A DNA stretch of 44,935 bases from a bacterium (GTDB taxonomy: Bacteria > JACRDZ01 > JAQUKH01), in NCBI GenBank assembly GCA_028719205.1, contig JAQUKH010000023.1, positions 1 to 44,935 of the forward strand, given 5' to 3'. The translations under genes were made by a program, and so were the position numbers. Positions 5,181-41,494 of this stretch are shown piece after piece. A model generated the notes under the pieces. That model was not told the origin of the DNA. It made no database searches and saw only the letters and a list, made by a program, of their open reading frames with translations. Each line of letters begins with the position of its first letter. The stretch's first letter is position 1.

Positions 5181-7563
5181 TTGGTTTTCCTCTAAAGATC
5201 GTTATAAACTCGGGATATTTCTTGTTTCACTCACAACCTTATTTTACGAAATCCTTTTGACGCGGGTCTTTGCGGTTATTATTTATTATCATTTCGCGTC
5301 GTTGGCTATCGCCCTGGCGCTTTTAGGCTTAAGTATCGGAGCGGTATTTTATTATTTAACGCAAAAGTATTTCGCGAAGGATCACGATAAAATTATTTAT
5401 TATTCATTTATTTTTTATTGCCTTAGCTATTTACTTGTTTTTTTGCTGCTTATTATTTTTTCCCGGAACGCGGAAAAGGTATCAACGCTTCTCAATTATT
5501 TTCGCAATCCTTTTTACCGTCCAACCCAGTCAATAACCGCGGAATTTAATATTTCTTCTTATCTTATATTATGGTCCGGTTTCTTTTTTGTATTACTTCC
5601 TTTTGTTTTAAGCGGTTTTTTATCAAGTTTATTTTTAACAATATCCATACAGGAGATCGAAAAAATATATTTTTGGAACTTATTCGGAACAAGTTTAGGC
5701 TGTATCTTTATATTTATTTTTCTCCCGCTTTTTGGCGCCTCAAATTCATTTCTGTTTATATGCGTTTTCGGATTGTTCTGCGGGATAATTTTATTATTTT
5801 TCGAGAAAAAGAAGAAAATATTATTGGCGTCAATCCTGTTCCCTGTTTTCGCTTTATTTCTTTTTGCGGTAAAAATTGATCCTGCCAGAATAAATTTTGT
5901 AAGATTAAGATTTACCCGCCCGTTAAAGAATCAATGGAATTCTTATTCTCATGTAGCGGTTTATCCGTTTCAGGGGGATATGGAGGTAAGCGGTTCATGG
6001 GGTTTAAGCCGCGCGTACACAGGATATGTTCCGCCGCATTTAAACATGGTTGTAAATGAGATCGATTACACGCCAATAATAAATTATGACGGCGACCTGT
6101 CGAAGCTGGAGTTCTTGAAATATGATCTCGTATCATTGCCGTATTATTTACTGGAGGCCCCTAAGACATTAATAATCGGGCCCGGCGGCGGGAAAGAGAT
6201 CCTTGCTGCCAGATTATTTAACGCGAGCCATGTCAGCGCGGTGGAGATCAATCCTTTAGTTATCAAATTTGTACAGGATAAATTTAACACATTCAGCGGA
6301 AGGCCGTATAGCCTGGAAAATGTTGAGGCAATTGTAGCTGACGGCAGGAATTATGTTAAAAGAAGCCGGGATACGTTTGACCTGATAACAGCTACACAGG
6401 TTTACGCGTATTTGGACCCGGTCGGTTCAGCCTTTAGTTTTACGGAGAATTATCTTTATACTAAAGAATCGTTCATAGATTATTTAGATCATTTAAGCGG
6501 TAGAGGTATGATAGCTGTAATAAAACCTTTGATACCGGAAGAACGGCTGCGTTTATTTTCTCTGGCAAGGGCATCGTTAGAATCAAAAGGCGAAAAGGAA
6601 TTTTCAAGACATTTAATGCTTATAAAAGAACGCGGAATGAATATATTTATTGTTAAAAAAGAAAGGTTCAGCCAGGGTGAGATCGATAAAGTAAAAGTCC
6701 TTTGCGGCGAAAAACAGTTTGAGCTGGTTTTTTATCCGGGGCTGGACGGCACAGGAGACCTTTTTGATTTTATAAAAGAAAATGACGCGAACCGGTTTTA
6801 TCAGAAATATCCGCTGGATATAAGCCCGTCAACGGATGATAAACCTTTTTTCTCTACCTTTTTAAAAGCAAAAGATTTCTGGTCAGGGACCTGGCCGAAA
6901 GAAAAAAAGGATTTTCCTCTAAGGGTGATCTTTATTTTGCGTAAATTTTTATTTATTTTTCTTTTTACTGATCTTTTGCTGATAGCGGTATTTGTTCTGA
7001 TAAAAAGGAACTTAACTGTTCCTTCATATTTTTCCTTACTTGGAATAGGGTATATGCTTATTGAGATCACCTTGATCCGAAAATTTATATTTTTTTTGGG
7101 GCATCCGGTTTATGCTGTCTCGGTTATTCTTTTTAGTTTGCTTCTTTTTAACGCGATAGGAAGCTTAACAGGCGTAAAAGTAAAATATATTTTGAAAAAT
7201 AAAATAATAATATTTATTTTACTATTATTTTTAGTAATGCTGTACAGCTATCCTTTGGACAGGATATTCACTGATTTTATTTACCTGAATATTATTTATA
7301 AAATTATTTTGACAACGATACTGATCTTCCCGTTAGGATATTTAATGGGAATACCTTTTCCCTTAGGCTTGAGTTCGATAAAAGAAGAGGATCGTGAGGC
7401 TATTCCCTACATTTGGGCGGTCAATGGCGCAAGCTCGGTTTTCGGGTCGCTTTTAGCCCTGGTATTATCTATGAGTTTCGGATATAATCTGACTTTTTTA
7501 CTTGCCGGGTTGATCTACCTTTTGGCGGGAATTTTGCTTAATAAGAAAAATAATATATTGTAA
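5137..7563 (+). CDS. Polytopic membrane protein with central spermidine-synthase-like/class I SAM-binding domain
   Basis: About 7 N-terminal TMs (YEILLTR.F...YHFA; Y..NL.G..LG), central LIIGPGGG..VEINP..DGR..DLI..ENYLYT.E, STDDKPFF, about 6 C-terminal TMs (G.PFP.GL; WAVNG..SV.GS). Start uncertain. Confidence 0.8.
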   Translation: MNFTNRIAHTITISNWFSSKDRYKLGIFLVSLTTLFYEILLTRVFAVIIYYHFASLAIALALLGLSIGAVFYYLTQKYFAKDHDKIIYYSFIFYCLSYLLVFLLLIIFSRNAEKVSTLLNYFRNPFYRPTQSITAEFNISSYLILWSGFFFVLLPFVLSGFLSSLFLTISIQEIEKIYFWNLFGTSLGCIFIFIFLPLFGASNSFLFICVFGLFCGIILLFFEKKKKILLASILFPVFALFLFAVKIDPARINFVRLRFTRPLKNQWNSYSHVAVYPFQGDMEVSGSWGLSRAYTGYVPPHLNMVVNEIDYTPIINYDGDLSKLEFLKYDLVSLPYYLLEAPKTLIIGPGGGKEILAARLFNASHVSAVEINPLVIKFVQDKFNTFSGRPYSLENVEAIVADGRNYVKRSRDTFDLITATQVYAYLDPVGSAFSFTENYLYTKESFIDYLDHLSGRGMIAVIKPLIPEERLRLFSLARASLESKGEKEFSRHLMLIKERGMNIFIVKKERFSQGEIDKVKVLCGEKQFELVFYPGLDGTGDLFDFIKENDANRFYQKYPLDISPSTDDKPFFSTFLKAKDFWSGTWPKEKKDFPLRVIFILRKFLFIFLFTDLLLIAVFVLIKRNLTVPSYFSLLGIGYMLIEITLIRKFIFFLGHPVYAVSVILFSLLLFNAIGSLTGVKVKYILKNKIIIFILLLFLVMLYSYPLDRIFTDFIYLNIIYKIILTTILIFPLGYLMGIPFPLGLSSIKEEDREAIPYIWAVNGASSVFGSLLALVLSMSFGYNLTFLLAGLIYLLAGILLNKKNNIL

Positions 7564-8844
7564 CCCCCATCCCGCGAAAATAGCTAAAAAAGGCAAAAAC
7601 AAAAATCTTTGCCGGGCGTCGCCGAAGGAAATCAGAGTGTTCAGCTGCGAATATATCACTACTAAATGAAGAAGAACGAATGAAGATCTTTCCTTGAAGG
7701 AGAAAATAACTCCAATTCCTGTTAAAATTATAAAAGGTATATAATAAAACAGATCAATTATTTTCAAGCCATCCGGTATATTCGGCCAGCGGGTATGCGG
7801 GCTCCAGTACTGCCAGAAACGGTAAATTTTTTGCGGTAATAATTTAATAAATATTACCGGGTTTTCCCTGATCCAGTTTAATGCCTGCAGGTAATACTTT
7901 CTGTCAGCCTCTTTTTCACCAAGCCCTGAGGAAGAATTTTCCGGATCAAGGTCTGAAAGATACATATTCTGCCATGAATCTCCTTTCCATTTGGTCCAGT
8001 CTCTTTTATCTTCTCCCTGCGGGATCTCTTCTGAGAAGTAAAGGCGGGGTGAACCGCTTACAAGAACGGCATCGCCCACTGCCTGAGGGTTGTTGCTGGC
8101 AAGGAACATTCTTCCTCCGCCGGTGGCGATAGGGATAAAGCCGTGGAAAATATTCCAGTTGCGGATCATCCAGGGCGCGATAACAATTAGTGTTGTAAGC
8201 GTAATTGTTAAAAATATTTTCGAAGCCTTTTTTTCAGGAAATTGTAAAAATGCCCAGACAGGGATAATAAAAAGAAAAGAAATAAAATTCGGACGGGTTA
8301 AATTTGTTAGCCCAAGAAAGATTCCCGAGAGTATTTGGTTGCTGAGAGAAGAATTTGATTCTGTCTTCAAAAGAAAAAAGATAGTTAATAATGAAAAAAG
8401 GACGCATAAATTTTCTGTTAAAAACCAGCCTGAAACATAAATGTATGCAGGAATAGTCGCAATGATTGACAAAGAAAAAAATGGAAATAAAGAAAAATCA
8501 TTGGTTTTAAGGATATTTTGCGATAAGTTTTCGGAAGCGCGGAATGTGACAAGGCATGTTAAAAGCGCCAGAAGGATATGCCCAAGTTTAGCCATAGCAA
8601 AATTATGTCCGAAAAAAAGATAAATTAACGCGAGAAAAGCAGGATATAAAGGAGGTTTTTTAGCTGTTGGAATATTTGGCTGTGATCCAAATCCGCCGCC
8701 CTGGGAAAAATTATAACCTACTTTTTCCAGCCAATAGCCGTGGGATTCAGGCGGCCCGGAAAATCCTATAAAAAAAAATATATAAAAAAACCTGAGCAAA
8801 AATCCAATAACTAAAATTAAAGATAGCCAATATGTTTTTTTCAT
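7498..8844 (-). CDS. ArnT/PMT-like GT-C glycosyltransferase (paralog 1)
   Basis: Polytopic; G.GF..P..PTAKKPPLYP.FLA, LTENL, GL..LTRP, PW.IRN, GDARQR. Confidence 0.8.
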   Translation of the reverse strand: MKKTYWLSLILVIGFLLRFFYIFFFIGFSGPPESHGYWLEKVGYNFSQGGGFGSQPNIPTAKKPPLYPAFLALIYLFFGHNFAMAKLGHILLALLTCLVTFRASENLSQNILKTNDFSLFPFFSLSIIATIPAYIYVSGWFLTENLCVLFSLLTIFFLLKTESNSSLSNQILSGIFLGLTNLTRPNFISFLFIIPVWAFLQFPEKKASKIFLTITLTTLIVIAPWMIRNWNIFHGFIPIATGGGRMFLASNNPQAVGDAVLVSGSPRLYFSEEIPQGEDKRDWTKWKGDSWQNMYLSDLDPENSSSGLGEKEADRKYYLQALNWIRENPVIFIKLLPQKIYRFWQYWSPHTRWPNIPDGLKIIDLFYYIPFIILTGIGVIFSFKERSSFVLLHLVVIYSQLNTLISFGDARQRFLFLPFLAIFAGWGLQYIIFLIKQNSRQKVDQPGK

Positions 8845-8853: not shown

Positions 8854-9978
8854 TTAATAAAATTCCTCAACCGTAATATCAATATTATCTTTTATTTCAG
8901 CATCTTTAATAGTAAGAATGTGTTCAGGCGTGCCGTCGTAGGCCCCTACAAGGTCACCCGGGGCAAGGGGCCCGCCGAAAGTATTTCTGGCACCAACGTA
9001 ATAATTTCCTCCCCGGCTTAAAAATAGCTCATAATTTCCGTTTTTCCCGGTCACGACCGAACGATATAGAGGTTTCCCGATCATTTGACTGTCCTGATAA
9101 ACAAAGGCATAGACACCTTCTTTTGGCTGGCCTGAGCTGTCTTTAATAGTTCCACGGATAATTGTTTGTGTTTTTGCTTTTATTTCACCTGACTCAATGC
9201 TTTTTAATTTTACGGGGTCTATTTTTCCAAGAACTATATCTTCCAGGTTCGTATAATTATTTATTTTTACTTCAACCGGATTATTTTGATAATCAGTATT
9301 CAAGTCTCCTGTTTTTAATCCGCCGAATTTATCCTTGTTTAATCTTTTCCGGACAGTTATATAATATTTTCCTTCCGGTAAATCCAGCGTGAAAATTCCT
9401 GATTTATCCGGTTTGATTAAGGCGTAATAAGACGGGCCCCTAAGGTCAGTATCATTATTTATGTAGGCATAAAGAAATGTACCTTCCATATCGGTATCTT
9501 TAGAAACTATTTTTCCTTTTATTCCCGTGTTTTTTGGGGAATTTACCGAGGATTCACTTTTTATTTCCTCTAAATCCAGGTTTATTTCAAGCCATTTATT
9601 CTCTTCAACGGTAATTGGATTTTGATTATGAAGCACCTGATAGTCACCTACACGCAATGGCCCGGTTGAAGCGTAATTCCAGCGTTTCCTGGCCAGGATA
9701 AAATATTTGCCGGGTTTGGGGGAGATCGTATATTGTCCGTCGCGTCTGGTTGCCTCAGAGATACTCGCGTATTGCTTTTTATAGTTTGTATCCTCATCGG
9801 TATAAAGATAAACAAACGCCCAGTCAGTGGGTTTGCCCTGAAAGGTTACAGTGCCTTTTATTCCATAATTTTTTGTGATTTTGCCTTTAGATGATCTTTG
9901 GCAGTTAATATTAACTACTGATAGAATAATAATATTAATAAATAAAAATATTGTTTTAATAAATTTACTGTTTATCAT
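8854..9978 (-). CDS. Probable lipoprotein with three prealbumin-like beta-sandwich repeats
   Basis: Signal ending VVNINC; repeats G.Y.I..RKR....G.L..GD.....NP; final GARNTFGGPLAPGDLVG.YDG..H, DNIDITVEE. Confidence 0.65.
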   Translation of the reverse strand: MINSKFIKTIFLFINIIILSVVNINCQRSSKGKITKNYGIKGTVTFQGKPTDWAFVYLYTDEDTNYKKQYASISEATRRDGQYTISPKPGKYFILARKRWNYASTGPLRVGDYQVLHNQNPITVEENKWLEINLDLEEIKSESSVNSPKNTGIKGKIVSKDTDMEGTFLYAYINNDTDLRGPSYYALIKPDKSGIFTLDLPEGKYYITVRKRLNKDKFGGLKTGDLNTDYQNNPVEVKINNYTNLEDIVLGKIDPVKLKSIESGEIKAKTQTIIRGTIKDSSGQPKEGVYAFVYQDSQMIGKPLYRSVVTGKNGNYELFLSRGGNYYVGARNTFGGPLAPGDLVGAYDGTPEHILTIKDAEIKDNIDITVEEFY

Positions 9979-11302
9979 GGATTTCCTTTTTTGATTTGTG
10001 AATATAATTATTTAAAGAATACATTCCAAGCGCGGAAAATATTAAAATATAATTGCCTGCTCTTAATCTCTGCTGAAGATCCCCGGAGTGGTAAAGAGCA
10101 ATAACAATTTGATGTATGATCAATAGATACGGAAATAAATAGTTTTTCCAATGTGCCAGGCTGGAAATGATTCCCCAAAAGAAAAATGGCAGAATAAAAA
10201 GTTCAAACAAAAAAGCAATATTCCTGAAGGGCTCAGTTAAAAAAGGGCTTACTGAGTGTCTGGAGAAGGGATGCCATAAAATTAAGAATTTCTTAAAGAG
10301 CAATTTTATATAGTTAGAAGGATTATTTTTGATCCATTGGATGGCATGTGAAAAATAACGGTCATTTATTTCCGGTTCGGTCAATGCGTCTTTTTTATTC
10401 AAGACAAGATCCTGGAACGGGGTTCCCATTTTGTCAGAAAGTTCTATCCAGTTTGAAGCATTTTCCCATCCGGGTTTTATTCCCTTTGAATAAAACCGGG
10501 CGGATCCGATCCATGGGGTCCAATTACCGTCGGCGTTTGGATTATTGCCTCCCCAAAAGCGGACCCCGCTTTCAGTATTATTATAAATAAATCTTTGATA
10601 TACCTTATAATTTCTGGCCATCCAGATTGATACAGGTATTATCATGGCAATAGTAATTATTAAAGCTGTTCTCAGCCATTTTTCCGGATAAACAAAATAT
10701 GACCAGATAAAAGCTAAAGGAAAATAAAACACTGTGCCGTATTGCAGGGAAAGCGTGGTCAATCCCAGAAATAATCCTCCAAACGCGAACGTCAGGATAT
10801 TTGAATCTTTTTTGGGTAAAATAATGAGATATACCCCCAGTGCCAGAAGAAAATACATAAATGTGTTGGATAAAAACCACCAAGAATTATAAATTAACAA
10901 AGGAGAAAAAGCGGTCAATAAGGCCGCAATACGGCTGATTTCTTCAGCCCCCTCTCCTGCACCTCCCCCTGTGTTTCTGGCAATTAAATAAACAAGCGCT
11001 GGAGTAATAGAAGAAAATACAATGAGCAGGATCCTTACTGCTGTATAATTATGCATGCCGAAAATTTTATAGATCAGGCTGATAATGAGTATGAATGCTG
11101 GAGGTTTTTTAGCTGTGGGAATATCGGGAAAATTTGAGTAACCATGCCCTGTCGCGAGATTGTAGGCGATCTTATCCAGCACAATACCATCAATCCCCGG
11201 TGAATCATTAAATCCATAATAAAGATTGAACGCAAAACGAAGGGAAAAGGCAAGAATGATAACAGCGGAAACAAATCTCCAATTTATTTTATCGACTTCC
11301 AT
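9965..11302 (-). CDS. ArnT/PMT-like GT-C glycosyltransferase (paralog 2)
   Basis: DG...D.IA.NL..G.GY..P.IPTAKKPP, W.ARNY, FWGGNNP.ADG, GDLQQR; start placed at ATG 11302 because a promoter covers the upstream in-frame part. Confidence 0.8.
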   Translation of the reverse strand: MEVDKINWRFVSAVIILAFSLRFAFNLYYGFNDSPGIDGIVLDKIAYNLATGHGYSNFPDIPTAKKPPAFILIISLIYKIFGMHNYTAVRILLIVFSSITPALVYLIARNTGGGAGEGAEEISRIAALLTAFSPLLIYNSWWFLSNTFMYFLLALGVYLIILPKKDSNILTFAFGGLFLGLTTLSLQYGTVFYFPLAFIWSYFVYPEKWLRTALIITIAMIIPVSIWMARNYKVYQRFIYNNTESGVRFWGGNNPNADGNWTPWIGSARFYSKGIKPGWENASNWIELSDKMGTPFQDLVLNKKDALTEPEINDRYFSHAIQWIKNNPSNYIKLLFKKFLILWHPFSRHSVSPFLTEPFRNIAFLFELFILPFFFWGIISSLAHWKNYLFPYLLIIHQIVIALYHSGDLQQRLRAGNYILIFSALGMYSLNNYIHKSKKEIHDKQ

Positions 11303-11308
11303 AAAAAA

Positions 11309-11351
11309 ATAGTAACAAATATTGTTTATAAAGTCAATTAAATGATACAAT
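11309..11351. promoter_or_regulatory. Overlapping divergent sigma70-type promoters
   Basis: Minus: TTGACT (11337-11332), 17 nt, TGT-TACTAT (11314-11309). Plus: TTGTTT (11322-11327), 18 nt, TGA-TACAAT (11346-11351). Confidence 0.6.
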
Positions 11352-11426
11352 AAAACCGTCATATTAAACCTGAATTTTGAACTAAAATGTCTTGTGAAAA
11401 TTCTATAAAAATGGGAGATCTATAAA

Positions 11427-12686
11427 TTGAGGTGGAGAAAAATTGCCCGGCATGAACTTTATTTTCCCGGGTCTGCCATTAACGCGGCGTTCAAGGCAAT
11501 ATTTACAGGAAAGATCAATAAAGGCGCCAAGATCGAAGAGTTTGAAAAGAAAATTGCTCAATATACAGGAAGAAAATATGCTCTTTCCGTTGCTTCAGGA
11601 AGAATGGCTCTTTATTTATCCTTGAAAGCCATGGCTTTTAAAAAGGGAGATGAGATCATAATCCCCAGTTTTATTACTCCTGAGGTCATTACAATGGTCC
11701 TTTGCGCGGATATGGTTCCTAAATTCGTTGATATTGAAGAATTTACCTATAATATGTCTCCGCGTTTACTGGAGGAAAAGATATCCGGTAAGACGAAGGC
11801 TATACTTTTAACTCATTTATTTGGCCAGCCCTGTGATATCGGGAAAATTTTAAAAATTGCCGAAAAATATAATCTTCAAATAATAGAAGATTCCGCGCAG
11901 GCTTTTGGCGCGGAGTATAAGGGACAGAAAACCGGGAGTTTTGGAGAAATAAGTTATTTCAGCCTGGGTCTGGTAAAAAATGTAAATTGTTTAGGCGGCG
12001 GAATAATTGTTACCGACAAAAAATATCTTTATGAGAATATAAAAAAAATGACGGAAGAATATGAATTCCCGGGTTTTATTAGAATGATCAGATTATTTTT
12101 TACCGCTCTTTTAGTAAAGATTTGTACCTCTCCCTTTATTTTCAGTTTTTTAATTTATCCGGTATTGTGGTTTTTCAGTAAATTTGGAGGAAATCCCGCG
12201 GATAAAATGTTTGATGAAAATTATGATGAGCTGGCTATGAGAAAAATTCCAGAGCATTACAAACTGAAATTTACCAACCTACAGGCGGCTATAGGGATAG
12301 AACAGATAAAAAATCTGGATATAATGAACGATAAAAGAATAACAAATGCCAATTATTTGGATCAATTTTTAAAAGATGAAAAAGTAATAGGCCTTCCCCA
12401 AATTATTCCAAATTGTAAAAGCATATATCTGAATTATTGTATAAGGATTGAAAACAGAGAAAAGATCATTAGAAAACTTTTTGAATACGGTATAGATGCT
12501 ACCAGAGGATATTTAAATGATTGCTCCGGTGAAGAAATATTTAAAGAATTTAACACTGAAAGCCCTGATTCAAAAAAACTTTACCATACAGGAATGTATT
12601 TACCCGTTTATCCGGCTCTTAAAAAAAAGGATATGGAATTCATAGCGGGAATTTTAAAAAAAGTGGTATATGAAAATAACCGTTAA
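11427..12686 (+). CDS. DegT/DnrJ/EryC1/StrS family PLP-dependent sugar aminotransferase
   Basis: FE...A.Y.G....V.SG..AL, GDEII.P, THLFGQP, IIEDSAQAFGA, PLP Lys in FSLGLVKN, QAAIG..Q, LPVYP; TTG start with GGGAG RBS. Confidence 0.92.
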   Translation: MRWRKIARHELYFPGSAINAAFKAIFTGKINKGAKIEEFEKKIAQYTGRKYALSVASGRMALYLSLKAMAFKKGDEIIIPSFITPEVITMVLCADMVPKFVDIEEFTYNMSPRLLEEKISGKTKAILLTHLFGQPCDIGKILKIAEKYNLQIIEDSAQAFGAEYKGQKTGSFGEISYFSLGLVKNVNCLGGGIIVTDKKYLYENIKKMTEEYEFPGFIRMIRLFFTALLVKICTSPFIFSFLIYPVLWFFSKFGGNPADKMFDENYDELAMRKIPEHYKLKFTNLQAAIGIEQIKNLDIMNDKRITNANYLDQFLKDEKVIGLPQIIPNCKSIYLNYCIRIENREKIIRKLFEYGIDATRGYLNDCSGEEIFKEFNTESPDSKKLYHTGMYLPVYPALKKKDMEFIAGILKKVVYENNR

Positions 12687-14988: not shown

Positions 14989-14990
14989 AA

Positions 14991-16570: not shown

Positions 16571-16619
16571 AACTCCCCCAACCCCCTCTTTAATTAAAGA
16601 GGAGGACTAAGGGGGCGTT
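16571..16619. repeat. C-run/G-run palindromic element at a gene junction
   Basis: Perfect 18-bp palindrome CCTCTTTAATTAAAGAGG (16585-16602) inside outer arms AACTCCCCC...GGGGGCGTT. Confidence 0.65.
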
Positions 16620-27295: not shown

Positions 27296-27353
27296 AAATT
27301 TAATGTAACATTTAAAAGTTTGTATGGTAAAAAGAGTGGAGGATTGGGTGTTT

Positions 27354-33216: not shown

Positions 33217-34293
33217 CTATAGTTTTACCAGCCAATAAAACAGTTCCGGGTAAAATTTTAAATTGAATAATATATTTGTGGTTAAGAAACACTCATGCGT
33301 GCAGAAACATTGTGATTTTTTTATATATTCTCTTATTTCATCCGCTTTGGGAGAAAACCATATTTTATTAAAATCATATCCGTTTTCCCTGAGATTTCCG
33401 AACTTTTTGTCCAAAAGTTCACATGGATATACATCGCCGTTCTCAAAAATAACACCGTTCAATAATCCCGCGTAACACGGACAAAAACTTCTTTTTTCTC
33501 TGACCACCCGGGCCGTCAGGTTCCGCCGGACCAGATTTTTCGCGCTGTTGAACCTGGAGAGTATCAGGCGATTCCGGAAATCCTTAAAACTGCCTGTCTT
33601 AACTTCTTTTTCCAATATTTTATTCAGATCTTCATAATATTTAATATCAACATTTTTACACTCAGGATCTCTTGGTTTGCCGCGGACCAGAAATGGCGCC
33701 CATGATTCTATTCCGAGATCCCTGGTCACAAAATCATATATTTCCGGCAGCCTGTGCTGGTTCATTGTGGAAATAGTAGTGATGACGCCGATGTTTAATT
33801 TATTATTTGTATTTCTTAATTCTTTCAACCGCCGGATGTTTTCGACAGCTTTTTCGAACAGGCCGTCCATTCCTCTTATTTCGTCATGATCCTTTCCTAA
33901 TGAATCCAGAGAGAAATTTATGTTTAAAGCAGCCTCAGGGCAATTTTTCAGGATGTTTTTCGCGTTTTTGATAATACTGTCCCCGAGAAAACCGTTTGTG
34001 GGCATGGCAATGATCCGGGCGTCATTATTATGATAAAAGATCTTAGCTATTTCGCCGATATCGTCTCTTAAAAAAGGCTCCCCGCCGGTTAAAAGTAAAA
34101 AAGACAGTTTATTCATTGTTTTAGATATCTTTTCTATCTCCTCAAGGCTCAAGTCAGGCGCGGTGAATTGTCTTTTCCAGTAAAAGCAATGATGGCATTT
34201 CGCTATGCATCTTGAAGTAATAAAAAAGATGAGATAGTTCGGGCCGTCAGCCCTTTTATCAAATATTCGTCTTATCAATCTTAGTTTATTCAT
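33217..34293 (-). CDS. Radical SAM protein with twitch/SPASM-type domain
   Basis: CIAKCHHC, TGGEPFLR.D, PTNG, SLD.....HD.IRG, CYAG......ENGDVYPCE, CFCTHEC; paralog of 22870-23940. Confidence 0.9.
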   Translation of the reverse strand: MNKLRLIRRIFDKRADGPNYLIFFITSRCIAKCHHCFYWKRQFTAPDLSLEEIEKISKTMNKLSFLLLTGGEPFLRDDIGEIAKIFYHNNDARIIAMPTNGFLGDSIIKNAKNILKNCPEAALNINFSLDSLGKDHDEIRGMDGLFEKAVENIRRLKELRNTNNKLNIGVITTISTMNQHRLPEIYDFVTRDLGIESWAPFLVRGKPRDPECKNVDIKYYEDLNKILEKEVKTGSFKDFRNRLILSRFNSAKNLVRRNLTARVVREKRSFCPCYAGLLNGVIFENGDVYPCELLDKKFGNLRENGYDFNKIWFSPKADEIREYIKKSQCFCTHECFLTTNILFNLKFYPELFYWLVKL

Positions 34294-35672
34294 ATAAATC
34301 TTTTCGCGAAGACAGCAATTTTTTTAAGTTCATCAAGTGAATGGATTTTTTTTACCATATTATACAATACCGATGGTTTAAAGTAAAAATTAATATATGC
34401 CTGTTTTATTAATTTAGATACCTGGGCGTTGTTCATGGGATAAGGCTGATAAAAATCATTATAATAATTCCACTTGCTGATATCTTTATTTATCTTTCCC
34501 ATTTTCGAGAGATCTTCAAACATTTTTGTTCCGGGGGCAAGAAGGCATCTTATAAAAGAAGCGTAATCAAGTTTTAACTGCCGGGCGTATTGGATCGTCT
34601 GGCGGCCTTCTTCATATGATTCATTTAATATTCCGAACATAAATCTTCCATAGGTTTCAATGCCGGAATTTTTGATCCGCGCTATCTGGTCTTCAATAAG
34701 CGAAAGTGATATGTGGTTTCCGCGGATATAATCCCGGTTTTTCTGAACGCCGGATTCAATGGCGCAATGTATGCGAAAGCAGCCGGCGGACCTCATTAGC
34801 GCCAGTAATTCGTCATCTAATTGGAAATTTGTAAGATATATGCTCCACTTAAAAGAAATTTTTTGTTTTATGATCTCATTGCATAATTTAACCGCTTCAT
34901 TACGGTTAGTTTCAAAAATAGAACTGTCATCATAAAAATTTATAGTTTTAATATTATATTTATTTATATTGTTTTGTATTTCATTAATGATTTCCGGGGC
35001 GTTTCTTATTTGTAAATTAGCCGTGCTTTTTCCAACGTTGCAAAAAGCGCAATGCCGGCCGCATCCTATGGTAGTGAACATATGGATAAAAGGCAGTTGG
35101 CAAAAAAGGCCGATATTCGGGATATATCTATTGACCGGTCCGTCAAGGAGCTCATAATCAGGTTCGAAATATCGCGGTATTTTTTTAGGATCAGCATAAT
35201 AAATTTTTTCTATTTTCTCTCCGTTTTCCAGTTTTTTTACGATCTCTATCATTGTTTGTTCGCCCTGTCCAATAACAATAGAGGCCGTTTCAGGAATATC
35301 TTCAAGGGATTTTCCTTTGGCATAATTAACATGGTGCCCGCCAAGAATGATTTTTACATCGGGAAGAGCTTCTTTAACCGCTTTACAAAGTTTACGGGTT
35401 TCGTTCCATAAACAGCTTATAGTGCTTATCCCGACCACATCAGGGTTTGTTTTAATTATAATTTTTAATATTTCATCCTGGCCATTAAAATAACCGTCAA
35501 TAACATTAACAAAATGCCCCTGTGCTTTTAAAGCCGAACCGATGCAAAGTATCCCGGTTGGAGGCAATATACCCAATGATGTAACATCTGAGTCAGCGTT
35601 TTTTGCCCGGGATGAGTTATTTCCTTTAAGTATTGAATAATTCCAGGGTGGGATAAGTAATACTATTTTCAT
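34290..35672 (-). CDS. Cobalamin-binding radical SAM protein (3)
   Basis: KIVLLIPP, PP.G...I, ILGG.H, GQGE, GCGRHCAFC, FYDD, IESG.Q, FMFG...E, FYFKP. Confidence 0.9.
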   Translation of the reverse strand: MKIVLLIPPWNYSILKGNNSSRAKNADSDVTSLGILPPTGILCIGSALKAQGHFVNVIDGYFNGQDEILKIIIKTNPDVVGISTISCLWNETRKLCKAVKEALPDVKIILGGHHVNYAKGKSLEDIPETASIVIGQGEQTMIEIVKKLENGEKIEKIYYADPKKIPRYFEPDYELLDGPVNRYIPNIGLFCQLPFIHMFTTIGCGRHCAFCNVGKSTANLQIRNAPEIINEIQNNINKYNIKTINFYDDSSIFETNRNEAVKLCNEIIKQKISFKWSIYLTNFQLDDELLALMRSAGCFRIHCAIESGVQKNRDYIRGNHISLSLIEDQIARIKNSGIETYGRFMFGILNESYEEGRQTIQYARQLKLDYASFIRCLLAPGTKMFEDLSKMGKINKDISKWNYYNDFYQPYPMNNAQVSKLIKQAYINFYFKPSVLYNMVKKIHSLDELKKIAVFAKRFI

Positions 35673-36685
35673 TTGTTACCCAGATGGTTAAAATGCAGGA
35701 ATATTCCGTTAATAACAGCCAAACCGAAGATAAAATTATTCAAGATGACCAATGGTACGCTTTTTAAAGCGAAAAAAACACCTTCTGATACGGCTAAATA
35801 ATATAAAAATTGTGATTGGGATGCTAAAAACGATGCTGTCCCGATTAAATTCAGGATCAGGAAAAAGGTATTTTTTGTATAAAAAAATAAAATAATAAAT
35901 AATACAGATAAGTAAAGCGAAGGGATACTGATAATAAAATTCGTGTTGCTGTTTGGATGTTGTTTTTTGTTAATGATATTAAACCATTTGTAATCAAAAA
36001 ACGCTTTTATATAATCAGAACCTTTATTGAAGTCGTTTGCAATAAGTTTCAGGAGATCATATTTCTTGTTATGGGTTACTTCCAAATTCGGGTCAAAATT
36101 TATTTTAAATCCCATTTTTTTCAGTTTTTTCCCAAAGATGATATCTTCAACACGGGGTTTGGTTATATTTTTGTCAAACCCCCCGCTTTGTTCAAAAACA
36201 TCTTTTTTTATCGCGGAAATAGAGGTATGTAAACAAGATACATCACTGGATAATTTCAGAAAACTATACCGGATGAATAAATTTTTGAATTTACTCATTA
36301 AATCGTTATTAGGGCATTCTTTTGTATATAATCCGATCAGGCAATCAATATCCGGCGAGGTAAAAATATCAGCTATATAAGACAGCGTGTTTGATTTTAT
36401 CAATACATCGGAATCAATAAAAAGAAAGATTTCCCCTGACGCTAAAGATGCCCCTGTATTTCGGGCGCTGGAGGGGCCTTGGTTATAATCAAGTTTAACG
36501 AGGCGGTAATCAAATTTTTTAACTATTTTTGAAATATCTTCTTTTGAAGCGTCATCAACGACTATGACTTCATAATTTTTGTAATCTGAATTGTTAATAC
36601 TTAAAAGTGTTTTCCCGAGTTCTTTCGGTTGGCCGTAAGCGGGTATGATTATTGATATTTTGGGGTACGCAGGATTAGTATGCAT
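35669..36685 (-). CDS. GT2 glycosyltransferase with C-terminal membrane helices
   Basis: ISIIIPAY, VVDDAS, GPS.ARN.GA, FIDSDV, GGFD, VEDI.FG, V.H. Confidence 0.92.
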   Translation of the reverse strand: MHTNPAYPKISIIIPAYGQPKELGKTLLSINNSDYKNYEVIVVDDASKEDISKIVKKFDYRLVKLDYNQGPSSARNTGASLASGEIFLFIDSDVLIKSNTLSYIADIFTSPDIDCLIGLYTKECPNNDLMSKFKNLFIRYSFLKLSSDVSCLHTSISAIKKDVFEQSGGFDKNITKPRVEDIIFGKKLKKMGFKINFDPNLEVTHNKKYDLLKLIANDFNKGSDYIKAFFDYKWFNIINKKQHPNSNTNFIISIPSLYLSVLFIILFFYTKNTFFLILNLIGTASFLASQSQFLYYLAVSEGVFFALKSVPLVILNNFIFGLAVINGIFLHFNHLGNK

Positions 36686-36826: not shown

Positions 36827-37825
36827 ATGATTTCCATAATTATACCTGTTTATAATAGCGCAAGCACGCTGGAAGATTGTTTGGATCATATATTCAAACA
36901 GGAATATATCGACTATGAGGTCATTGTTGTCGATGACGGTTCCACTGACCGTTCAGCAGGGATAGCCTCTGAATTTAAACTTAAACTTATACCGATGTGC
37001 CGCAATAAAGGAGCGGGCGCGGCCAGAAATCGCGGCGCGAGAGAAGCAAAAGGTGATATTTTATGTTTCACGGATTCTGATTGTATAGTACCCCCGGATT
37101 GGCTTTTAAAGATAGCCGGGCAGTTTGATGATAAAAATACAGGTGCCGTAGGAGGAGGATACGCGTTTTCGGCCGGGAACAGCGTGCTGGAAATATTTGC
37201 TCATCTTGAACTGGTTTATAGAAGAAGCGGATTCCCGAAATTTGTTTCTGCCGCGGTATCTAATAATCTGGCCTGCCGTAAGGAAATATTCGAAAAACTG
37301 GGAGGGTTTCCTGAATATTTCACGGGGGCGGGCATGGAGGAAATTGTTTTTACCTTCGCGTTAAGCCGAAAGTATAAATTGATATGGGATAGTTCTAACG
37401 GTGTCGGGCATTATTTTTGTGATAAAATAAAAAATTATTTAAAACAGCAATATATCTTCGCGTACAGGGCAGCGTTAGTAACAGTTTTTATTCCCGCTAT
37501 ATCTTCTGTGGAAATATTCCGGCATAAAAATAATATTTTACAGCCGCTTAGTTTCTATCTAAGTCATTTTTTCCTTTTGCTCTCTGTTTTTTCCATAAAA
37601 TACGGAATACTGTTTATTTTGTTTTTATTTTTAATGTTTCTGTCTAATTTAAACTTTCTGTTGTTTATCCGTAAAAAAATATCTTTGTTCTCTTTTTGGA
37701 AAGTATTGGTATATATATATATAAGAAATTTCGCCTGGAGCGCGGGTTTTATTACGGGAATCGCGGCAGGGATTTTGCGCAGGAAAAGAGATCTTTCCCG
37801 TATATGGCTGGAGACTTATAAATGA
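36827..37825 (+). CDS. GT2 glycosyltransferase with C-terminal membrane helices
   Basis: ISIIIPVYN, VVDDGSTD, GAGAARN.GA, FTDSDC.VP.DWL, LGGF.E. Confidence 0.92.
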   Translation: MISIIIPVYNSASTLEDCLDHIFKQEYIDYEVIVVDDGSTDRSAGIASEFKLKLIPMCRNKGAGAARNRGAREAKGDILCFTDSDCIVPPDWLLKIAGQFDDKNTGAVGGGYAFSAGNSVLEIFAHLELVYRRSGFPKFVSAAVSNNLACRKEIFEKLGGFPEYFTGAGMEEIVFTFALSRKYKLIWDSSNGVGHYFCDKIKNYLKQQYIFAYRAALVTVFIPAISSVEIFRHKNNILQPLSFYLSHFFLLLSVFSIKYGILFILFLFLMFLSNLNFLLFIRKKISLFSFWKVLVYIYIRNFAWSAGFITGIAAGILRRKRDLSRIWLETYK

Positions 37826-39261
37826 AAATATTATTGTTAGTTGCTCCTTATAATCCATGTGAGTATTATCCCGGGCATCAGGCCAAACCCTCAAGGCTCG
37901 CGCTTAACAAAAACCTGGGATTTATTCCGGGAGCTACAACGCCGCTTGGCCCGTTATATGTTGCCGCTGTGTTGAAAAAAGCCGGGTACGAGGTAAAATT
38001 CATGGATGGGATCTTCCATAGCTGGGAGGAAGAAGAAAAAATCATAAGAGATGAACTTCCGTCGGTAATAGGGATATCTGTTACGGCCTTTGGATTTGAA
38101 CGGACAAAACGGCTGACCGCGATCATAAAAAAGATCAGCCCTGAAATATTTACGGTTATCGGAGGGCCGTATCCTGATGCAGTACAGGAAAAATGCCTGG
38201 AAGATGATCCCAATCTGGATGTTGTCTCTATTGGCGATGGTGAATATACCATGCGTGATCTATGTTACGCTTTAGAAAACAAAAAGGACCTGTCAGGAGT
38301 AAAAGGTATAGCCTTTCGGAACGGAGCCGGCAGGATCATAAAAAATCCAAGCCGTCCTTTTATCGAAAATTTAGATGAGTTGCCTTTTCCGGCGAGAGAA
38401 TTAGTGGACGTAAAAAAATATTCTCCCGCAATCGGACATTATAAAAAACTACCGAACGCGACTATTATTGGTTCGCGGGGATGCAAAGGCCAGTGTATTT
38501 TCTGCCACACCAAAATATTTCCGGATCTTTATACGCGTTTCAGAAAACCTGAATTTGTGGTTGAAGAAATGGAAAAACTGGTTAAAGACCACGGGATAAA
38601 GGATTTCCTGTTCTGGGACAATAATCTTACGGAAGACAAAGAAAGGATTATTATCCTTTGTGAGGAGATAATAAAGAGAAAATTGAATATAATCTGGTCA
38701 GGAGGCACGCGCGCTGATACGATTGACGAAGAAATTATTACTGTAATGAAACGGTCCGGATGCTGGAAGCTACTGGTAGGCGTGGAATCGGGATCGCAAA
38801 AGAGCCTGGACATTTTAAATAAAGGTGAGACCGTGGAGCAGGTTGAAAAAGCCATAGGCTGGATAAAAAAAGCCGGTATTTCCGTATTTGCCACGTTTAT
38901 ATTCGGTATTCCGGGAGAAACCTATCAGGATGCCTTAAAAACAATAGCTTTTGCTAAAAAGCTCGATCCGGATGTCGCGAAATTTTTCACTTTATCCTGT
39001 AATCCGGGAAGCATTATAAGCAAAAAAGTACATGAATATGGAAATATGCCGCTTGATTCGCACGCGCAGTCTTTTCACGCGGCCGGTTTTGTACCTTATA
39101 CTATGACACACGCCGAGCTTGAAGAGGTATTCAACCGCGCCTATAAGGAATTTTATATAAGGTCTTCATATATTTTGAAAAGAGCATTAAAAATTCGCAG
39201 TATCGAAGATATAAAACAGAATATCCGTGGTTTTTTCGCCTTTAAGCAGGAAAATTATTAA
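37822..39261 (+). CDS. Cobalamin-binding radical SAM protein (4)
   Basis: PLG.LYVAA, IGGP, GDGE, LD.LPFPAR, SRGCKGQCIFC, FWDNN, GVESGSQ, FIFG.PGET, AY.EFY.R. Confidence 0.93.
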   Translation: MKILLLVAPYNPCEYYPGHQAKPSRLALNKNLGFIPGATTPLGPLYVAAVLKKAGYEVKFMDGIFHSWEEEEKIIRDELPSVIGISVTAFGFERTKRLTAIIKKISPEIFTVIGGPYPDAVQEKCLEDDPNLDVVSIGDGEYTMRDLCYALENKKDLSGVKGIAFRNGAGRIIKNPSRPFIENLDELPFPARELVDVKKYSPAIGHYKKLPNATIIGSRGCKGQCIFCHTKIFPDLYTRFRKPEFVVEEMEKLVKDHGIKDFLFWDNNLTEDKERIIILCEEIIKRKLNIIWSGGTRADTIDEEIITVMKRSGCWKLLVGVESGSQKSLDILNKGETVEQVEKAIGWIKKAGISVFATFIFGIPGETYQDALKTIAFAKKLDPDVAKFFTLSCNPGSIISKKVHEYGNMPLDSHAQSFHAAGFVPYTMTHAELEEVFNRAYKEFYIRSSYILKRALKIRSIEDIKQNIRGFFAFKQENY

Positions 39262-39279: not shown

Positions 39280-40836
39280 ATGAAGGTAGTTTTTGTTTAC
39301 ATGGGAACTATAAATCTGGGGATTGAATCTCTCGCCGGTATGCTTGAGGCTCACGGGCATAAAACCGATCTGATATATGACCCCGCTTTATTTGATGACA
39401 AAAGATATATATATTCTCCACGCTTAGCCAGGTTATTCAATCAGGAAAAAATAATAATAGAAAAGATCCTTGAGAGCCGGCCGGATCTGATAGCTTTCTC
39501 GGTTCTTACTTATAATTATCAGTGGGCTTCACGTATGGCTCAGGGCCTAAAGAAAAAATTACCGCAAGTTCCTATAGTATTTGGCGGGCATCATCCTACA
39601 CTTTTACCCGAAAGAGTTATAAAGGATGATTTTGTTGATTTTTTAGTTGTTGGAGAGGGTGAATACGCATTATTGGATCTGGCAAATGCCTTGGAAAAGG
39701 GGGGTGATTGCCATAATATAGAAAATGTATGGAGCAAGAAAGACGGGAAGATAATATCGAATCCCGTCAGGAAGTTAATTGAAGACCTGGATGTTATTCC
39801 TTTGCCTGATAAAGAGTTATTTCAAAAATATATTCCCTCGCAGGATGAATATATTATTATTTCCGGAAGGGGATGTCCTTTCAGATGCACTTTTTGCTGT
39901 AATCCCGTCTGGCATAAAATTTATGAGGGTAAAGGCCGGTTTGTAAGAAAACGAAGTGTTGCGAATGTAATTGAAGAATTAAAAGTTAATAAGAAGAAAT
40001 ATGGTTTTAAAACAATTTATTTTGCCGATGAAGCTTTTACCTGGAACAGTGAATGGATCAGGCAATTCGCGGAATCTTACGGGAAACAAATTCAAGTTCC
40101 GTTTAAATGTGTCTGCCATCCCTTGCAGCTTGATGAAGAGATTGTCGGTTTATTAAAAAAGGCCGGTTGTTACGCGGTTGAGATAGGAATTCAGACGATT
40201 GATGAAGAACTGAAAAGATCTTTATTGCGAAGAACTGAAAGTAACACGGAGGTAAAAGAGGCAATAGAAAGATGTCATAAATACGGGCTGACAATAATCG
40301 CAGACCATATATTCGGGCTCCCGGGGGATAAGGAGGAATTTCTGGAAAAAGCGGCGTGTTTTTATTCTCAGGTCCGGCCTCATAGAATAACCGATTATAC
40401 GCTTTCCTATTCCCCTGAAACCGCATTGCTTGAAACTGCCTGTAAAATGGGAATAGTTGACGCTGAACAATTGGAATGCATTGAAAGCGGGCGTGATAAT
40501 TCCTATATCCACGGCGGATCAACTAAGGATAAGCATCAAAAAAGAATAGCGGAAAATTTTATAGTTTTTTTTAAGTTAATACCTTTTATACCGGATAAAC
40601 TTGTTATTTTAATAATAAAGAAAAAAACTTACCGTTATTTCCACCTTTTCCCAAAACCGTTTTTAGCCATTTTGGACCTTTTGACAGTAATTTTTATATC
40701 CCACGAATATAGGGCTTTAAATTATCTTAAGTATTATTACCGTGAACTAAAGAAATATTTCAAATTAAAATTTCGTTTTAAACGGGGATCAAATGTACAA
40801 AAATCAAAGCTTAAGCCTGGTCATGCCGGCGTATAA
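39280..40836 (+). CDS. Cobalamin-binding radical SAM protein (5)
   Basis: LG.ESL...L...GH, FGG.HPT, GEGE, GRGCPFRCTFCCN, RS..NVI.E, F.DE.F, GIQT, HIFGLPG. Confidence 0.93.
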   Translation: MKVVFVYMGTINLGIESLAGMLEAHGHKTDLIYDPALFDDKRYIYSPRLARLFNQEKIIIEKILESRPDLIAFSVLTYNYQWASRMAQGLKKKLPQVPIVFGGHHPTLLPERVIKDDFVDFLVVGEGEYALLDLANALEKGGDCHNIENVWSKKDGKIISNPVRKLIEDLDVIPLPDKELFQKYIPSQDEYIIISGRGCPFRCTFCCNPVWHKIYEGKGRFVRKRSVANVIEELKVNKKKYGFKTIYFADEAFTWNSEWIRQFAESYGKQIQVPFKCVCHPLQLDEEIVGLLKKAGCYAVEIGIQTIDEELKRSLLRRTESNTEVKEAIERCHKYGLTIIADHIFGLPGDKEEFLEKAACFYSQVRPHRITDYTLSYSPETALLETACKMGIVDAEQLECIESGRDNSYIHGGSTKDKHQKRIAENFIVFFKLIPFIPDKLVILIIKKKTYRYFHLFPKPFLAILDLLTVIFISHEYRALNYLKYYYRELKKYFKLKFRFKRGSNVQKSKLKPGHAGV

Positions 40837-41494
40837 TGAAAAAGAGGCTGTTGCGGAGGTTATTTCAGGTTATAAAAAACTTGGTATAATCGATGAGATT
40901 ATTGTTGTTGATAATAATTCAACCGATGGGACAGGAGAAAAGGCTTTAAACTTGGGGGTAAGGGTAGTAAAAGAACCAAAACAGGGTTACGGTTACGCCT
41001 GTATCCGCGGTTTAAAAGAGGCAACCGGAGATCTGGTAATTATAATTGAATGCGACGGAACTTTCAGGCCGGAAGATGTTGATAAACTTTTAAAATATAT
41101 TGAAGGTTATGATATGGTTATCGGGAGCAGGGTGCACAATGATTTAAATCACGCTAACGCCAATATGGATCGGGTGATCCGGTGGGGAAATTTTGTTCTG
41201 GCAAAGGTTATGGAGGTATTTTACGCGGGCGATTATAAATTAAATGATGTCGGCTGCACCTTTCGCGTTATCAAAAAGGCCTCATTAGAACGGTTTGTTG
41301 ATAAATTAAGGATAGGGGGCGAGGATTTTACCCCGGAGTTAACCTTTGAAGCTTTAAAGGCAAATGCCGCGATAATTCAGATCCCGATAAGTTATCAGCC
41401 AAGGATAGGGGAAAGCAAACTTTCTCCTGACAGGCTGCATTCTATCAGGATAGGATTAAAACATTTTTTCCACATAATTTCCAGAAGATTTTGA
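40793..41494 (+). CDS. GT2, polyprenyl-phosphate sugar synthase (DPM1)-like
   Basis: VMPAYNE, VVDNNSTD, QGYG.A...G, ECDGT, V.GSR, L.DVGCT.R, PI.Y.PR.GESKL. Confidence 0.9.
   Translation: MYKNQSLSLVMPAYNEKEAVAEVISGYKKLGIIDEIIVVDNNSTDGTGEKALNLGVRVVKEPKQGYGYACIRGLKEATGDLVIIIECDGTFRPEDVDKLLKYIEGYDMVIGSRVHNDLNHANANMDRVIRWGNFVLAKVMEVFYAGDYKLNDVGCTFRVIKKASLERFVDKLRIGGEDFTPELTFEALKANAAIIQIPISYQPRIGESKLSPDRLHSIRIGLKHFFHIISRRF

Follow-up and report, generated by a model that had tools for sequence, protein, structure and literature searches.

Gene content of the region

The window analysed here, the entire 44,935-nucleotide (nt) contig JAQUKH010000023.1 of a metagenome-assembled bacterial genome (2.587 Mb on 68 contigs, 92.7% complete), holds between positions 7498 and 41494 a 34-kb region rich in genes for radical S-adenosylmethionine (SAM) enzymes and glycosyltransferases. 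We assigned families by scanning every one of the 39 long open reading frames (ORFs) of the window with Pfam and NCBIfam, and predicted transmembrane (TM) helices with a crude hydropathy script. For comparison we sampled 200 relatives, five of them from the same phylum; counts out of 201 genomes include the source genome. G001 (98% complete) and G002 belong to the same genus as the source genome, and G003 to another family of its phylum.

The scans confirmed the gene list of an initial annotation of this DNA: five radical SAM (rSAM) genes of the B12-binding type (B12-rSAM) and three of the twitch/SPASM type, five family 2 glycosyltransferases (GT2), four PMT_2-type GT-C glycosyltransferases, a DegT aminotransferase, an FAD oxidoreductase (FADox), a PaaK-like ligase, a PP-loop enzyme and SufS. 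To these we added purM, a class-I methyltransferase, a PQQ/BamB-like propeller, two CarboxypepD_reg proteins, a beta-helix protein and a 121-amino-acid (aa) protein with three TM helices. The absences recorded there also held, as the Pfam scan of 7498-41494 returned no polyketide or nonribosomal peptide synthetase, terpene cyclase, Wzx/Wzy, ABC or NDP-sugar dehydratase family. The genes of the region are as follows.

7498..8844, reverse strand: GT-C 1, PMT_2 type, 448 aa (Pfam 32.2 bits); first-loop Asp replaced by His; adjoins GT-C 2/3 in G001 and G002 too
8854..9978, reverse strand: secreted CarboxypepD_reg protein (Pfam) with an N-terminal hydrophobic segment, between GT-C 1 and GT-C 2; paralogue of 27324-28460 and 1534-2325
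9965..11362, reverse strand: GT-C 2, PMT_2 type (Pfam 44.2 bits)
11427..12686, forward strand: DegT/DnrJ/EryC1-type sugar aminotransferase (Pfam 246.7 bits; under all NCBIfam equivalog cut-offs); not at this place in G001 or G002
12670..13698, forward strand: rSAM_a, with AhbD/NirJ-like scores (Radical_SAM, no SPASM match) and six C-terminal Cys; 17-nt overlap with DegT
13645..14988, reverse strand: GT-C 3 (Pfam PMT_2 61.5, PMT 35.4 bits), last gene of operon 20297->13645
14991..16184, reverse strand: SufS-type cysteine desulfurase (Aminotran_5 369 bits; TIGR01979 394 bits, cut-off 475)
16193..16558, reverse strand: 121-aa protein, about three predicted TM helices, no family; kept behind the PP-loop gene in G001
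16594..17391, reverse strand: QueC-like PP-loop ATP pyrophosphatase (Pfam QueC 24.4 bits), a rare family found in 9 of 201 genomes
17391..18788, reverse strand: PaaK/FlxY-like adenylate-forming ligase (NCBIfam only, E 5.5e-35 to 1.6e-27, under cut-offs; no Pfam family at E <= 0.001)
18852..20297, reverse strand: B12-rSAM 1, with HpnJ/BchE-like scores (Pfam, NCBIfam)
20392..21462, forward strand: class-I SAM methyltransferase (Pfam), hydrophobic N-terminus; not at this place in G001
21455..22912, reverse strand: B12-rSAM 2 (Radical_SAM; B12 domain 28.4 bits, under the 32.1 cut-off)
22870..23940, reverse strand: twitch/SPASM rSAM 1 (Pfam); 44-nt overlap with GT2_a
23897..24916, reverse strand: GT2_a (PF00535), C-terminal TM helices by hydropathy
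24961..27224, reverse strand: PQQ/BamB-like propeller and purM, upstream of GT2_a on the same strand; the propeller-purM genes adjoin the B12-rSAM pair in G001 too
27324..29857, forward strand: secreted CarboxypepD_reg protein (27324-28460) and NosD-like beta-helix protein (Pfam, hydropathy); many paralogues on G001 contig C61
29870..31159, reverse strand: GT-C 4 (Pfam PMT_2 54 bits), last gene of the six-gene operon 36685->29870
31168..32463, reverse strand: FADox, amine-oxidase-type FAD oxidoreductase (NF005560/PRK07233, 418.7 bits, cut-off 252)
32460..33185, reverse strand: GT2_b, short, DPMS-like (PF00535; PDB matches DPMS 5mlz, then GtrB and ArnC)
33217..34293, reverse strand: twitch rSAM 2, with CX3CX2C and four invariant C-terminal Cys
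34290..35672, reverse strand: B12-rSAM 3 (Pfam, NCBIfam)
35669..36685, reverse strand: GT2_c (PF00535), C-terminal TM helices by hydropathy; first gene of operon 36685->29870
36827..37825, forward strand: GT2_d (PF00535), TM helices by hydropathy; first gene of operon 36827->41494
37822..39261, forward strand: B12-rSAM 4 (Pfam, NCBIfam)
39280..40836, forward strand: B12-rSAM 5 (Pfam), two C-terminal TM helices (428-474) predicted by hydropathy
40793..41494, forward strand: GT2_e, short, DPMS/AglJ-like (PF00535); 44-nt overlap with B12-rSAM 5

The PMT_2 scores of the four GT-Cs (32-61 bits) all exceeded the cut-off of 26.1. The purM gene (26106-27224) is genuine (352.6 bits, cut-off 236), and it and the propeller are probably housekeeping neighbours that do not belong to the system. 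It is possible that the CarboxypepD_reg and beta-helix proteins at 27324..29857 are acceptors or glycan-modifying proteins. The N-terminus of the methyltransferase at 20392-21462 resembles a signal peptide, which is odd for a SAM-dependent enzyme, and may be a membrane anchor.

The sequence of the region recurred in a separately assembled run, X1, possibly from the source sample, in which one 21,771-nt contig spanned 24348-41400 with zero differences. Three DNA runs from a single study held the stretch, one of which may be the source, and no RNA run was listed as containing it. Apparent repeats in the read mapping (26049-26097 and 31112-31177) proved to be A/T-rich low-complexity stretches.

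Pairing and fusion of GT2 and radical SAM genes

The initial annotation had GT2 and rSAM enzymes cooperating, and this idea gained support from three sides: overlapping genes in four operons of the window, a conserved GT2-twitch gene pair, and three kinds of fusion protein. To examine neighbourhoods, we compared a twitch alignment with one genome per species, which gave 489 relatives, and took the 80 best loci; these covered many phyla of Bacteria and, among archaea, DPANN, Bathyarchaeota and others. The ORF caller recovered the anchor gene in 69 of the 80 (the other 11 were dropped), and Pfam was run on the 132 immediate neighbours. Next to the twitch gene stood a GT2 in 21 of the 69 loci, a glycosyltransferase of any family in 31, a B12-rSAM in 6, and a PMT_2 and a GT87 protein in one each. 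Within 10 kb, profiles of the window proteins found a GT2 in 28 loci, a B12-rSAM in 19 and a GT-C in 10, with all three present in 4 (L026, L028, L038 and L081).

B12-rSAM 4 gave a similar picture. Its relatives occurred in 54 of 201 genomes at E <= 1e-60, and at the 28 best loci the adjoining gene was a GT2 eight times and a GT-C-type protein twice (TMEM260-like and YfhO), with other glycan genes at several. Conservation of gene neighbourhoods, which had been suggested as a check on the initial annotation, came out divided: the GT2-rSAM linkage recurs across phyla, and the GT-C linkage is confined to a minority of loci.

Natural fusion proteins join the same partners. At L051, a locus in an Elusimicrobiales metagenome-assembled genome (MAG), the neighbour of the twitch gene encodes one 727-aa protein that combines B12-binding, radical SAM and GT2 domains. 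Among the window proteins, the short GT2_b and GT2_e most resemble its GT2 half, and B12-rSAM 1 most resembles its rSAM half. Such fusions of a B12-rSAM to a DPMS-like GT2 made up 83 of the 120 best clusters (at least 650 aa with all three Pfam domains), and their hosts included Elusimicrobiota, Omnitrophota, a PVC-group bacterium and a Lokiarchaeia MAG. In the window, B12-rSAM 5 and GT2_e overlap in the same order as the domains of these fusions. In the second kind, a TM-tailed GT2 is joined to the twitch enzyme (L047, L051; 12 of 105 clusters); of the 4,583 representatives of the twitch family (E <= 1e-30), the 150 best include 11 proteins of at least 600 aa, all of them GT2::twitch fusions. 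The third kind, found at L040, L095 and P0230, links the twitch enzyme to LPG_synthase_TM with 6-8 TM helices, a domain of the type found in the lipid flippase MprF. Fusion to this flippase-type domain, as to a TM-tailed GT2, puts the twitch enzyme at the membrane. Taken together, these gene orders and fusions strongly support a coupling between GT2 and rSAM enzymes.

Long twitch ORFs at L023 and L080 were left out as fusions; their N-terminal extensions have neither family nor TM helices, and may reflect over-called starts. Two further proteins combine related domains: P0080 (959 aa) carries methyltransferase, GT2, radical SAM and B12 domains, and P0137 (634 aa) joins a methyltransferase to a PMT_2 GT-C.

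The radical SAM enzymes

All eight rSAMs of the region keep the CX3CX2C motif. Five ORFs show class B features, with PF02310, a predicted B12 domain, beside PF04055, and in four of them PF02310 scored over the cut-off. The paralogues share 22-35% identity and are old. Membership in characterised, unrelated families would have refuted the initial annotation; none of the eight reached the cut-off of any characterised NCBIfam family. The solved sequence relative closest to B12-rSAM 4 was AprD4 (E 1.7e-15).

The best NCBIfam scores of the B12-rSAMs were for HpnJ (107-214 bits, TIGR03471 cut-off 577.6) and BchE (120-212 bits, cut-off 481). HpnJ was the top or second match for four of the five and the third for B12-rSAM 3, and GT2_c and GT2_d matched HpnI weakly. 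These scores bring to mind glycolipids: GT2 and rSAM modules might build head groups of membrane glycolipids, in the manner of HpnI/HpnJ or calditol synthase, with the lipid-bound sugar ring-contracted or methylated and left in place, and with the GT-Cs as unrelated neighbours. Head-group remodelling by a GT2 and then an rSAM is described for HpnI/K/J and Cds (excerpts of PMC13459092), 59 of the 69 twitch loci have no GT-C nearby, and a lipid end product would agree with the fusions to a lipid-flippase-type domain. Yet the HpnJ scores fall far below the cut-off, squalene-hopene cyclase (PF13243) was not found in the 92.7% complete source genome, which makes a hopanoid role unlikely, and no HpnK-type deacetylase was seen in the Pfam scan of the window. 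GT-C 4, moreover, lies in an operon with these genes, 8 nt behind FADox, and the short GT2s are closest to polyprenyl-phosphate-sugar synthases. We consider this glycolipid explanation unlikely, at about one step beyond a fringe possibility.

In an alignment of 61 twitch sequences, C29, C33, C36, C273, C291, C329 and C331 were invariant, and the four C-terminal Cys would fit one auxiliary cluster of the twitch-like kind. The twitch model was predicted at a pLDDT of 95, and its nearest folds were SkfB, CteB, anSME and SuiB. DesII and BlsE were also neighbours, with a likeness at fold level only (TM 0.5-0.64, 15-19% identity). The fold search thus gave generic SPASM/twitch neighbours alone and no functional lead, and methylation, epimerisation or oxidation, deoxygenation and ring contraction are all guesses at the reaction type. 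A predicted complex of twitch 2 with GT2_b scored 0.00, which gives no verdict either way. We had also considered DegT and rSAM_a as a BtrS/BtrN-like pair and rejected it: none of 29 loci with rSAM_a relatives had a DegT neighbour (blastp), and no BtrN chain was among the PDB matches at E <= 0.001.

SkfB, CteB and SuiB among the nearest solved folds, and matches of the B12-rSAMs to the methylase models ApyD and rSAM_ocin_1 at 68-177 bits, would also be compatible with a natural-product cluster, for instance one for a ribosomally synthesised and post-translationally modified peptide (RiPP), in which SPASM and B12 rSAMs and GT2s mature a peptide. We give this hardly any credence: gaps inside 7498-41494 are at most 141 nt and leave no room for a precursor gene, the Pfam scan of the window contains no protease, ABC exporter or RiPP recognition domain, and the neighbours in other genomes are glycan genes.

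Modular organisation and inheritance

Gene spacing predicts at least eight transcription units, on both strands (junctions in nt, negative where genes overlap).

GT-C 2, CarboxypepD_reg, GT-C 1
DegT, rSAM_a: 17-nt overlap
B12-rSAM 1, ligase, PP-loop, 121-aa protein, SufS, GT-C 3: junctions +63, -1, +35, +8, +2
Methyltransferase, as a single gene
purM, propeller, GT2_a, twitch 1, B12-rSAM 2: GT2_a/twitch 1 -44, twitch 1/B12-rSAM 2 -43
CarboxypepD_reg, beta-helix
GT2_c, B12-rSAM 3, twitch 2, GT2_b, FADox, GT-C 4: junctions -4, -4, +31, -4, +8
GT2_d, B12-rSAM 4, B12-rSAM 5, GT2_e: junctions -4, +18, -44

Promoter-like sites numbered 76 against 70 +/- 7 in shuffles and 91 against 62 +/- 10, and terminators were no commoner than in shuffles (17 versus 17.7; 18 versus 16.6). 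Single good -35/-10 matches upstream of B12-rSAM 1, purM and GT2_a lend the units weak support.

Comparison of G001 and G002 with the region, by DNA and protein, revealed how these units are inherited. In G001 the parts are spread over four contigs with unrelated flanks: three GT-Cs with SufS; the ligase, PP-loop and small-protein genes; B12-rSAM 1 and 2 with the propeller and purM; and GT2_e alone. The ligase, PP-loop and small-membrane-protein trio lies directly after a phage-type integrase and before pyruvate kinase (contig C64, L102, 1962-5815), a position that suggests that the trio moves as a unit. DegT and rSAM_a are both missing at their places in G001 and G002, as are GT2_a and twitch 1, and the methyltransferase is missing at its place in G001. 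The richest operon, the six genes of 36685->29870, was not found in G001 or G002; in G001 a series of beta-helix and CarboxypepD_reg paralogues takes its place. In G003, GT2_b with twitch 2 and GT2_a with twitch 1 form free-standing pairs, the latter at 53% and 57% identity, and GT2_d, B12-rSAM 4 and B12-rSAM 5 are kept together. This module-wise presence and absence in G001, G002 and G003 indicates that small modules are the units of inheritance.

The region is thus a mosaic of several parallel, strain-variable modules and not one pathway line. The single line feeding four GT-Cs that the initial annotation had drawn is not supported: the parts are scattered over four G001 contigs, the six-gene operon was not found in the same-genus genomes, and GT-Cs occur at few related loci (10 of 69 for twitch, 2 of 28 for B12-rSAM).

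With modules scattered in this way, one beside an integrase, the genes could be unrelated accessory envelope genes, whose operons share a location and no chemistry and whose rSAMs act on various non-glycan substrates. The number of transcription units on both strands, the purM gene inside the region, and the patchy neighbour links of FADox, rSAM_a and PP-loop are what such an assembly would look like, and B12-domain genes are common here, with 23 matches in the genome. Against this, each of the eight rSAM genes is closely packed with a GT2, GT-C or DegT gene, and GT2 pairing and fusion with both rSAM types recur in many phyla. Moreover, 5 of the 23 PF02310 matches and 4 of the 8 PMT_2 matches of the 2.587-Mb genome fall inside the 1.3% of it that makes up the region, a concentration of genes greater than expected by chance. 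We therefore regard a merely shared location as quite improbable.

Three further GT2/B12-rSAM loci occur elsewhere in the source genome: contig C2 132714-142915 (GT2, B12-rSAM, GT2), contig C2 151539-166362 (DegT and, further on, two B12-rSAMs and then a twitch gene and a GT2) and contig C19 40409-50731 (a GT2, then a B12-rSAM). Contig C7 55648-66140 holds GT2, GT2, GT-C and GT2 genes.

Glycosyltransferases and the membrane

The five GT2s are of two kinds: GT2_a, GT2_c and GT2_d have TM tails by hydropathy, and GT2_b and GT2_e have no TM helices. The best solved relative of the two short enzymes was Pyrococcus DPMS 5mlz (E 1.8e-15 and 6.7e-18), followed by GtrB and ArnC. Their best NCBIfam matches were AglJ, dolichyl-phosphate hexose transferase, PgfS and ArnC, all under cut-offs. 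The substrate of the rSAMs is probably a membrane-bound, lipid-linked sugar, as the initial annotation had supposed; the DPMS/GtrB/ArnC-like GT2s, the TM-anchored B12-rSAM 5 and the flippase-domain fusions all point this way.

A different substrate would follow if the short GT2s glycosylated a soluble small molecule, as glucosyl-3-phosphoglycerate synthase (GpgS) does, and the rSAMs tailored a cytoplasmic glycoside, solute or cofactor. The missing TM helices of GT2_b and GT2_e, the matches of GT2_e to GpgS structures (E 1e-9) and the B12-rSAM::GT2 fusions, in which no TM helix is clear, agree with this. It is nevertheless very unlikely in our estimation, given the closer match of both enzymes to DPMS, their NCBIfam matches to lipid-phosphate-sugar enzymes, the predicted membrane anchor of B12-rSAM 5, and the twitch enzymes fused to TM-tailed GT2s or to a flippase-type domain of 6-8 TM helices.

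The GT-C 4 model (pLDDT 88.5) had AglB, STT3, ArnT, PglB and PMT as its top Foldseek matches and is predicted to fold as a GT-C_A enzyme; a GT-C profile gave no real match among PDB sequences. The first-loop Asp, position 36 of GT-C 4, was kept in 32 of 45 aligned sequences, including GT-C 2, 3 and 4, and is His in GT-C 1. GT2 and GT-C are encoded together in operon 36685->29870 only, and rSAM and GT-C share an operon twice in the window, in 36685->29870 and in 20297->13645. LpxC is present in the source genome, so lipid A is probably made, and lipid A or lipopolysaccharide (LPS) is a possible acceptor.

Other neighbours and flanking genes

FADox homologues occurred in 22 of 201 genomes (source genome included) at E <= 1e-30, with patchy GT2, B12-rSAM and GT-C neighbours, and FADox, GT2 and GT-C were rejected as a conserved trio: a GT2 adjoined 3 of 24 loci and a GT-C-like gene 2 of 24. 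A scan of the genome contigs with the single FADox protein gave no match. The order PP-loop, ORF of about 125 aa, SufS recurs in one distant genome (L171, G122 contig C14, 195-2328), and in another genome a PP-loop gene adjoins a twitch rSAM (L173 172-2034), a hint that a step connected with these systems inserts sulfur. We discarded GtrA as an identity for the 121-aa protein, which had no Pfam support and showed no alignment with the small ORFs in the equivalent position of L171 and L166.

Several other genes recur as neighbours. An alkaline-phosphatase-superfamily gene (Sulfatase or type I phosphodiesterase), possibly a recurring partner, has a twitch rSAM as its neighbour at four of five loci and a FADox homologue at the fifth (L013 10591-12270; L031 2671-4167; L069 8211-9929; L087 8217-9902; L118 1420-2886). 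Secreted right-handed beta-helix proteins, one of 2,838 aa, stand beside GT2/twitch/B12-rSAM or FADox genes in several genomes (L015, G001 contig C83, 7969-16485; L098 10797-20000; L034, L115 and L131). At two Caldithrix-type loci (L088 8718-9905; L097 535-1857) geranylgeranyl-reductase-like flavoproteins adjoin the twitch rSAM, possibly a link to polyprenyl-carrier saturation.

At 5137-7563 (forward strand) lies the gene of an 808-aa protein whose spermidine-synthase-like domain is surrounded by about 12-16 predicted TM helices; it adjoins the GT-C trio in G001 and G002 too, and a soluble relative with TPR repeats lies beside a FADox homologue in L130. Just outside the region, at 41709-42692 (forward strand), is the contig's ninth rSAM gene, of the AmmeMemoRadiSam system (TIGR04337 390.7 bits, cut-off 220), with none of its partner genes seen in the window. 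MoaA at 2332-3327 is the tenth.

Proposed mechanism and relation to known systems

We propose that the region is a strain-variable envelope-glycosylation locus of parallel modules, in which a lipid-linked sugar is made, radically altered, flipped and, in some modules, transferred by a GT-C; we rate the chances of this proposal as evenly balanced. First, a GT2 of the polyprenyl-phosphate-sugar-synthase type would load a sugar onto a membrane lipid carrier at the cytoplasmic face. One or more rSAMs, of the four-Cys twitch type, the HpnJ/BchE-like B12-domain type or both, would then alter the lipid-bound sugar without oxygen, the candidate reactions being C-methylation, epimerisation or oxidation, deoxygenation, and ring rearrangement or contraction. 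The product would be flipped across the membrane, and in at least two window operons a small PMT_2-type GT-C would pass it to a periplasmic acceptor, which may be LPS, another glycan, or the neighbouring secreted beta-helix or CarboxypepD_reg proteins.

Several observations weigh against this proposal. All GT2 and rSAM scores lie under the NCBIfam equivalog cut-offs. GT-C linkage outside this genome is weak, at the 10 of 69 and 2 of 28 loci given above, and might be near what chance would give; the three-GT-C block of G001 has no rSAM or GT2 neighbour, and links of FADox, rSAM_a and PP-loop to glycan genes are patchy. GT2_d has chondroitin synthase and not DPMS as its best solved relative, GT2_e also resembles soluble glucosyl-3-phosphoglycerate synthases, so that a soluble acceptor for it is conceivable, and the B12-rSAM::GT2 fusions show no convincing TM helix. 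No flippase family (GtrA, ArnE/F, MATE or Wzx) was recognised by Pfam in the window, PF04138 (GtrA) was not found in the 92.7% complete genome, whose sole PF03706 gene is on another contig, C9, and no nucleotide-sugar genes were recognised in the window. Finally, purM and the BamB-like gene sit just upstream of one module on the same strand.

The frame of the proposal is that of known three-component extracytoplasmic glycosylation (GtrA/GtrB/Gtr*; ArnC/ArnT; C. youngae; DprE1/DprE2 with Emb/Aft). These systems share with operon 36685->29870 the joint encoding of a GT-C and a GT2, the latter in the window a candidate lipid-phosphate-sugar synthase, and their loci are strain-variable too. In mycobacteria, DprE1/E2 turn decaprenyl-P-Ribf into decaprenyl-P-Araf, the epimerase setting the pentofuranose that is added, and the ORF13 epimerase has the same role in the Citrobacter youngae PPPRS-MATE-GT136 system (excerpts of PMC11127046). 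In contrast, the tailoring enzymes of the window would be rSAMs with B12-domain or twitch architecture, and not SDR, FAD or hydrolase enzymes; the window has no recognised GtrA, MATE or Wzx, its several modules lie side by side, and its GT-Cs are short (429-465 aa).

The hopanoid pathway HpnI/HpnK/HpnJ shares with the window a TM-tailed GT2 followed by a B12-domain rSAM, with HpnJ among the best-scoring models, and differs in the score gap, cyclase and HpnK noted above and in the GT-Cs present here. The reaction proposed for HpnJ is contraction of a sugar ring on a lipid, and that for Cds of Sulfolobus acidocaldarius, an rSAM, is remodelling of lipid-bound glucose (excerpts of PMC13459092). 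Cds (Saci_1489) acts in an archaeal tetraether lipid context, and no model bearing its name came up in the NCBIfam scan of the window. By analogy, head-group remodelling by HpnJ and Cds appears to be the nearest chemical precedent.

Sugar-tailoring rSAMs are also known from antibiotic pathways, among them BtrN, GenK and GenD1. DesII and BlsE are structural neighbours of the twitch model, and AprD4 is a solved relative of B12-rSAM 4. These antibiotic enzymes oxidise, deoxygenate, decarboxylate or methylate sugars, and act in secondary metabolism on soluble nucleotide sugars or pseudo-oligosaccharides. In the full-text literature covered by our search, which leaves subscription journals aside, we found no paper linking rSAMs with polyprenyl-phosphate sugars or GT-C systems, and the excerpts of a 2026 review of lipid-modifying rSAMs (PMC13459092) name no rSAM tied to either. 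What would be new here is the rSAM tailoring and its fusions, and in our view the locus is a real variant, so far uncharacterised, of the extracytoplasmic glycosylation systems.

Extracytoplasmic glycosylation runs on lipid-linked sugar donors, and few edits made on the carrier are known, such as those of DprE1/E2 and the SDR epimerase. ArnD also edits a lipid-linked sugar on its carrier. More broadly, and a little short of even confidence, we suggest that envelope glycobiology may have a widespread, undescribed branch among anaerobic and mostly uncultured bacteria and archaea, in which rSAMs tailor polyprenyl-phosphate sugars and which the three fusions would define. With its four to five modules, two of them closed by a GT-C, the window would rank with the richest cases, and the sugars brought to the surface would be C-methylated, epimerised, deoxygenated or carbocyclic. 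For expression and assay, the natural fusions make simple targets. If true, the proposal would bring new enzymology, B12-dependent reactions at the membrane included, would explain part of the stock of orphan B12-rSAMs in uncultured anaerobes, and would predict unusual sugars on their surfaces.

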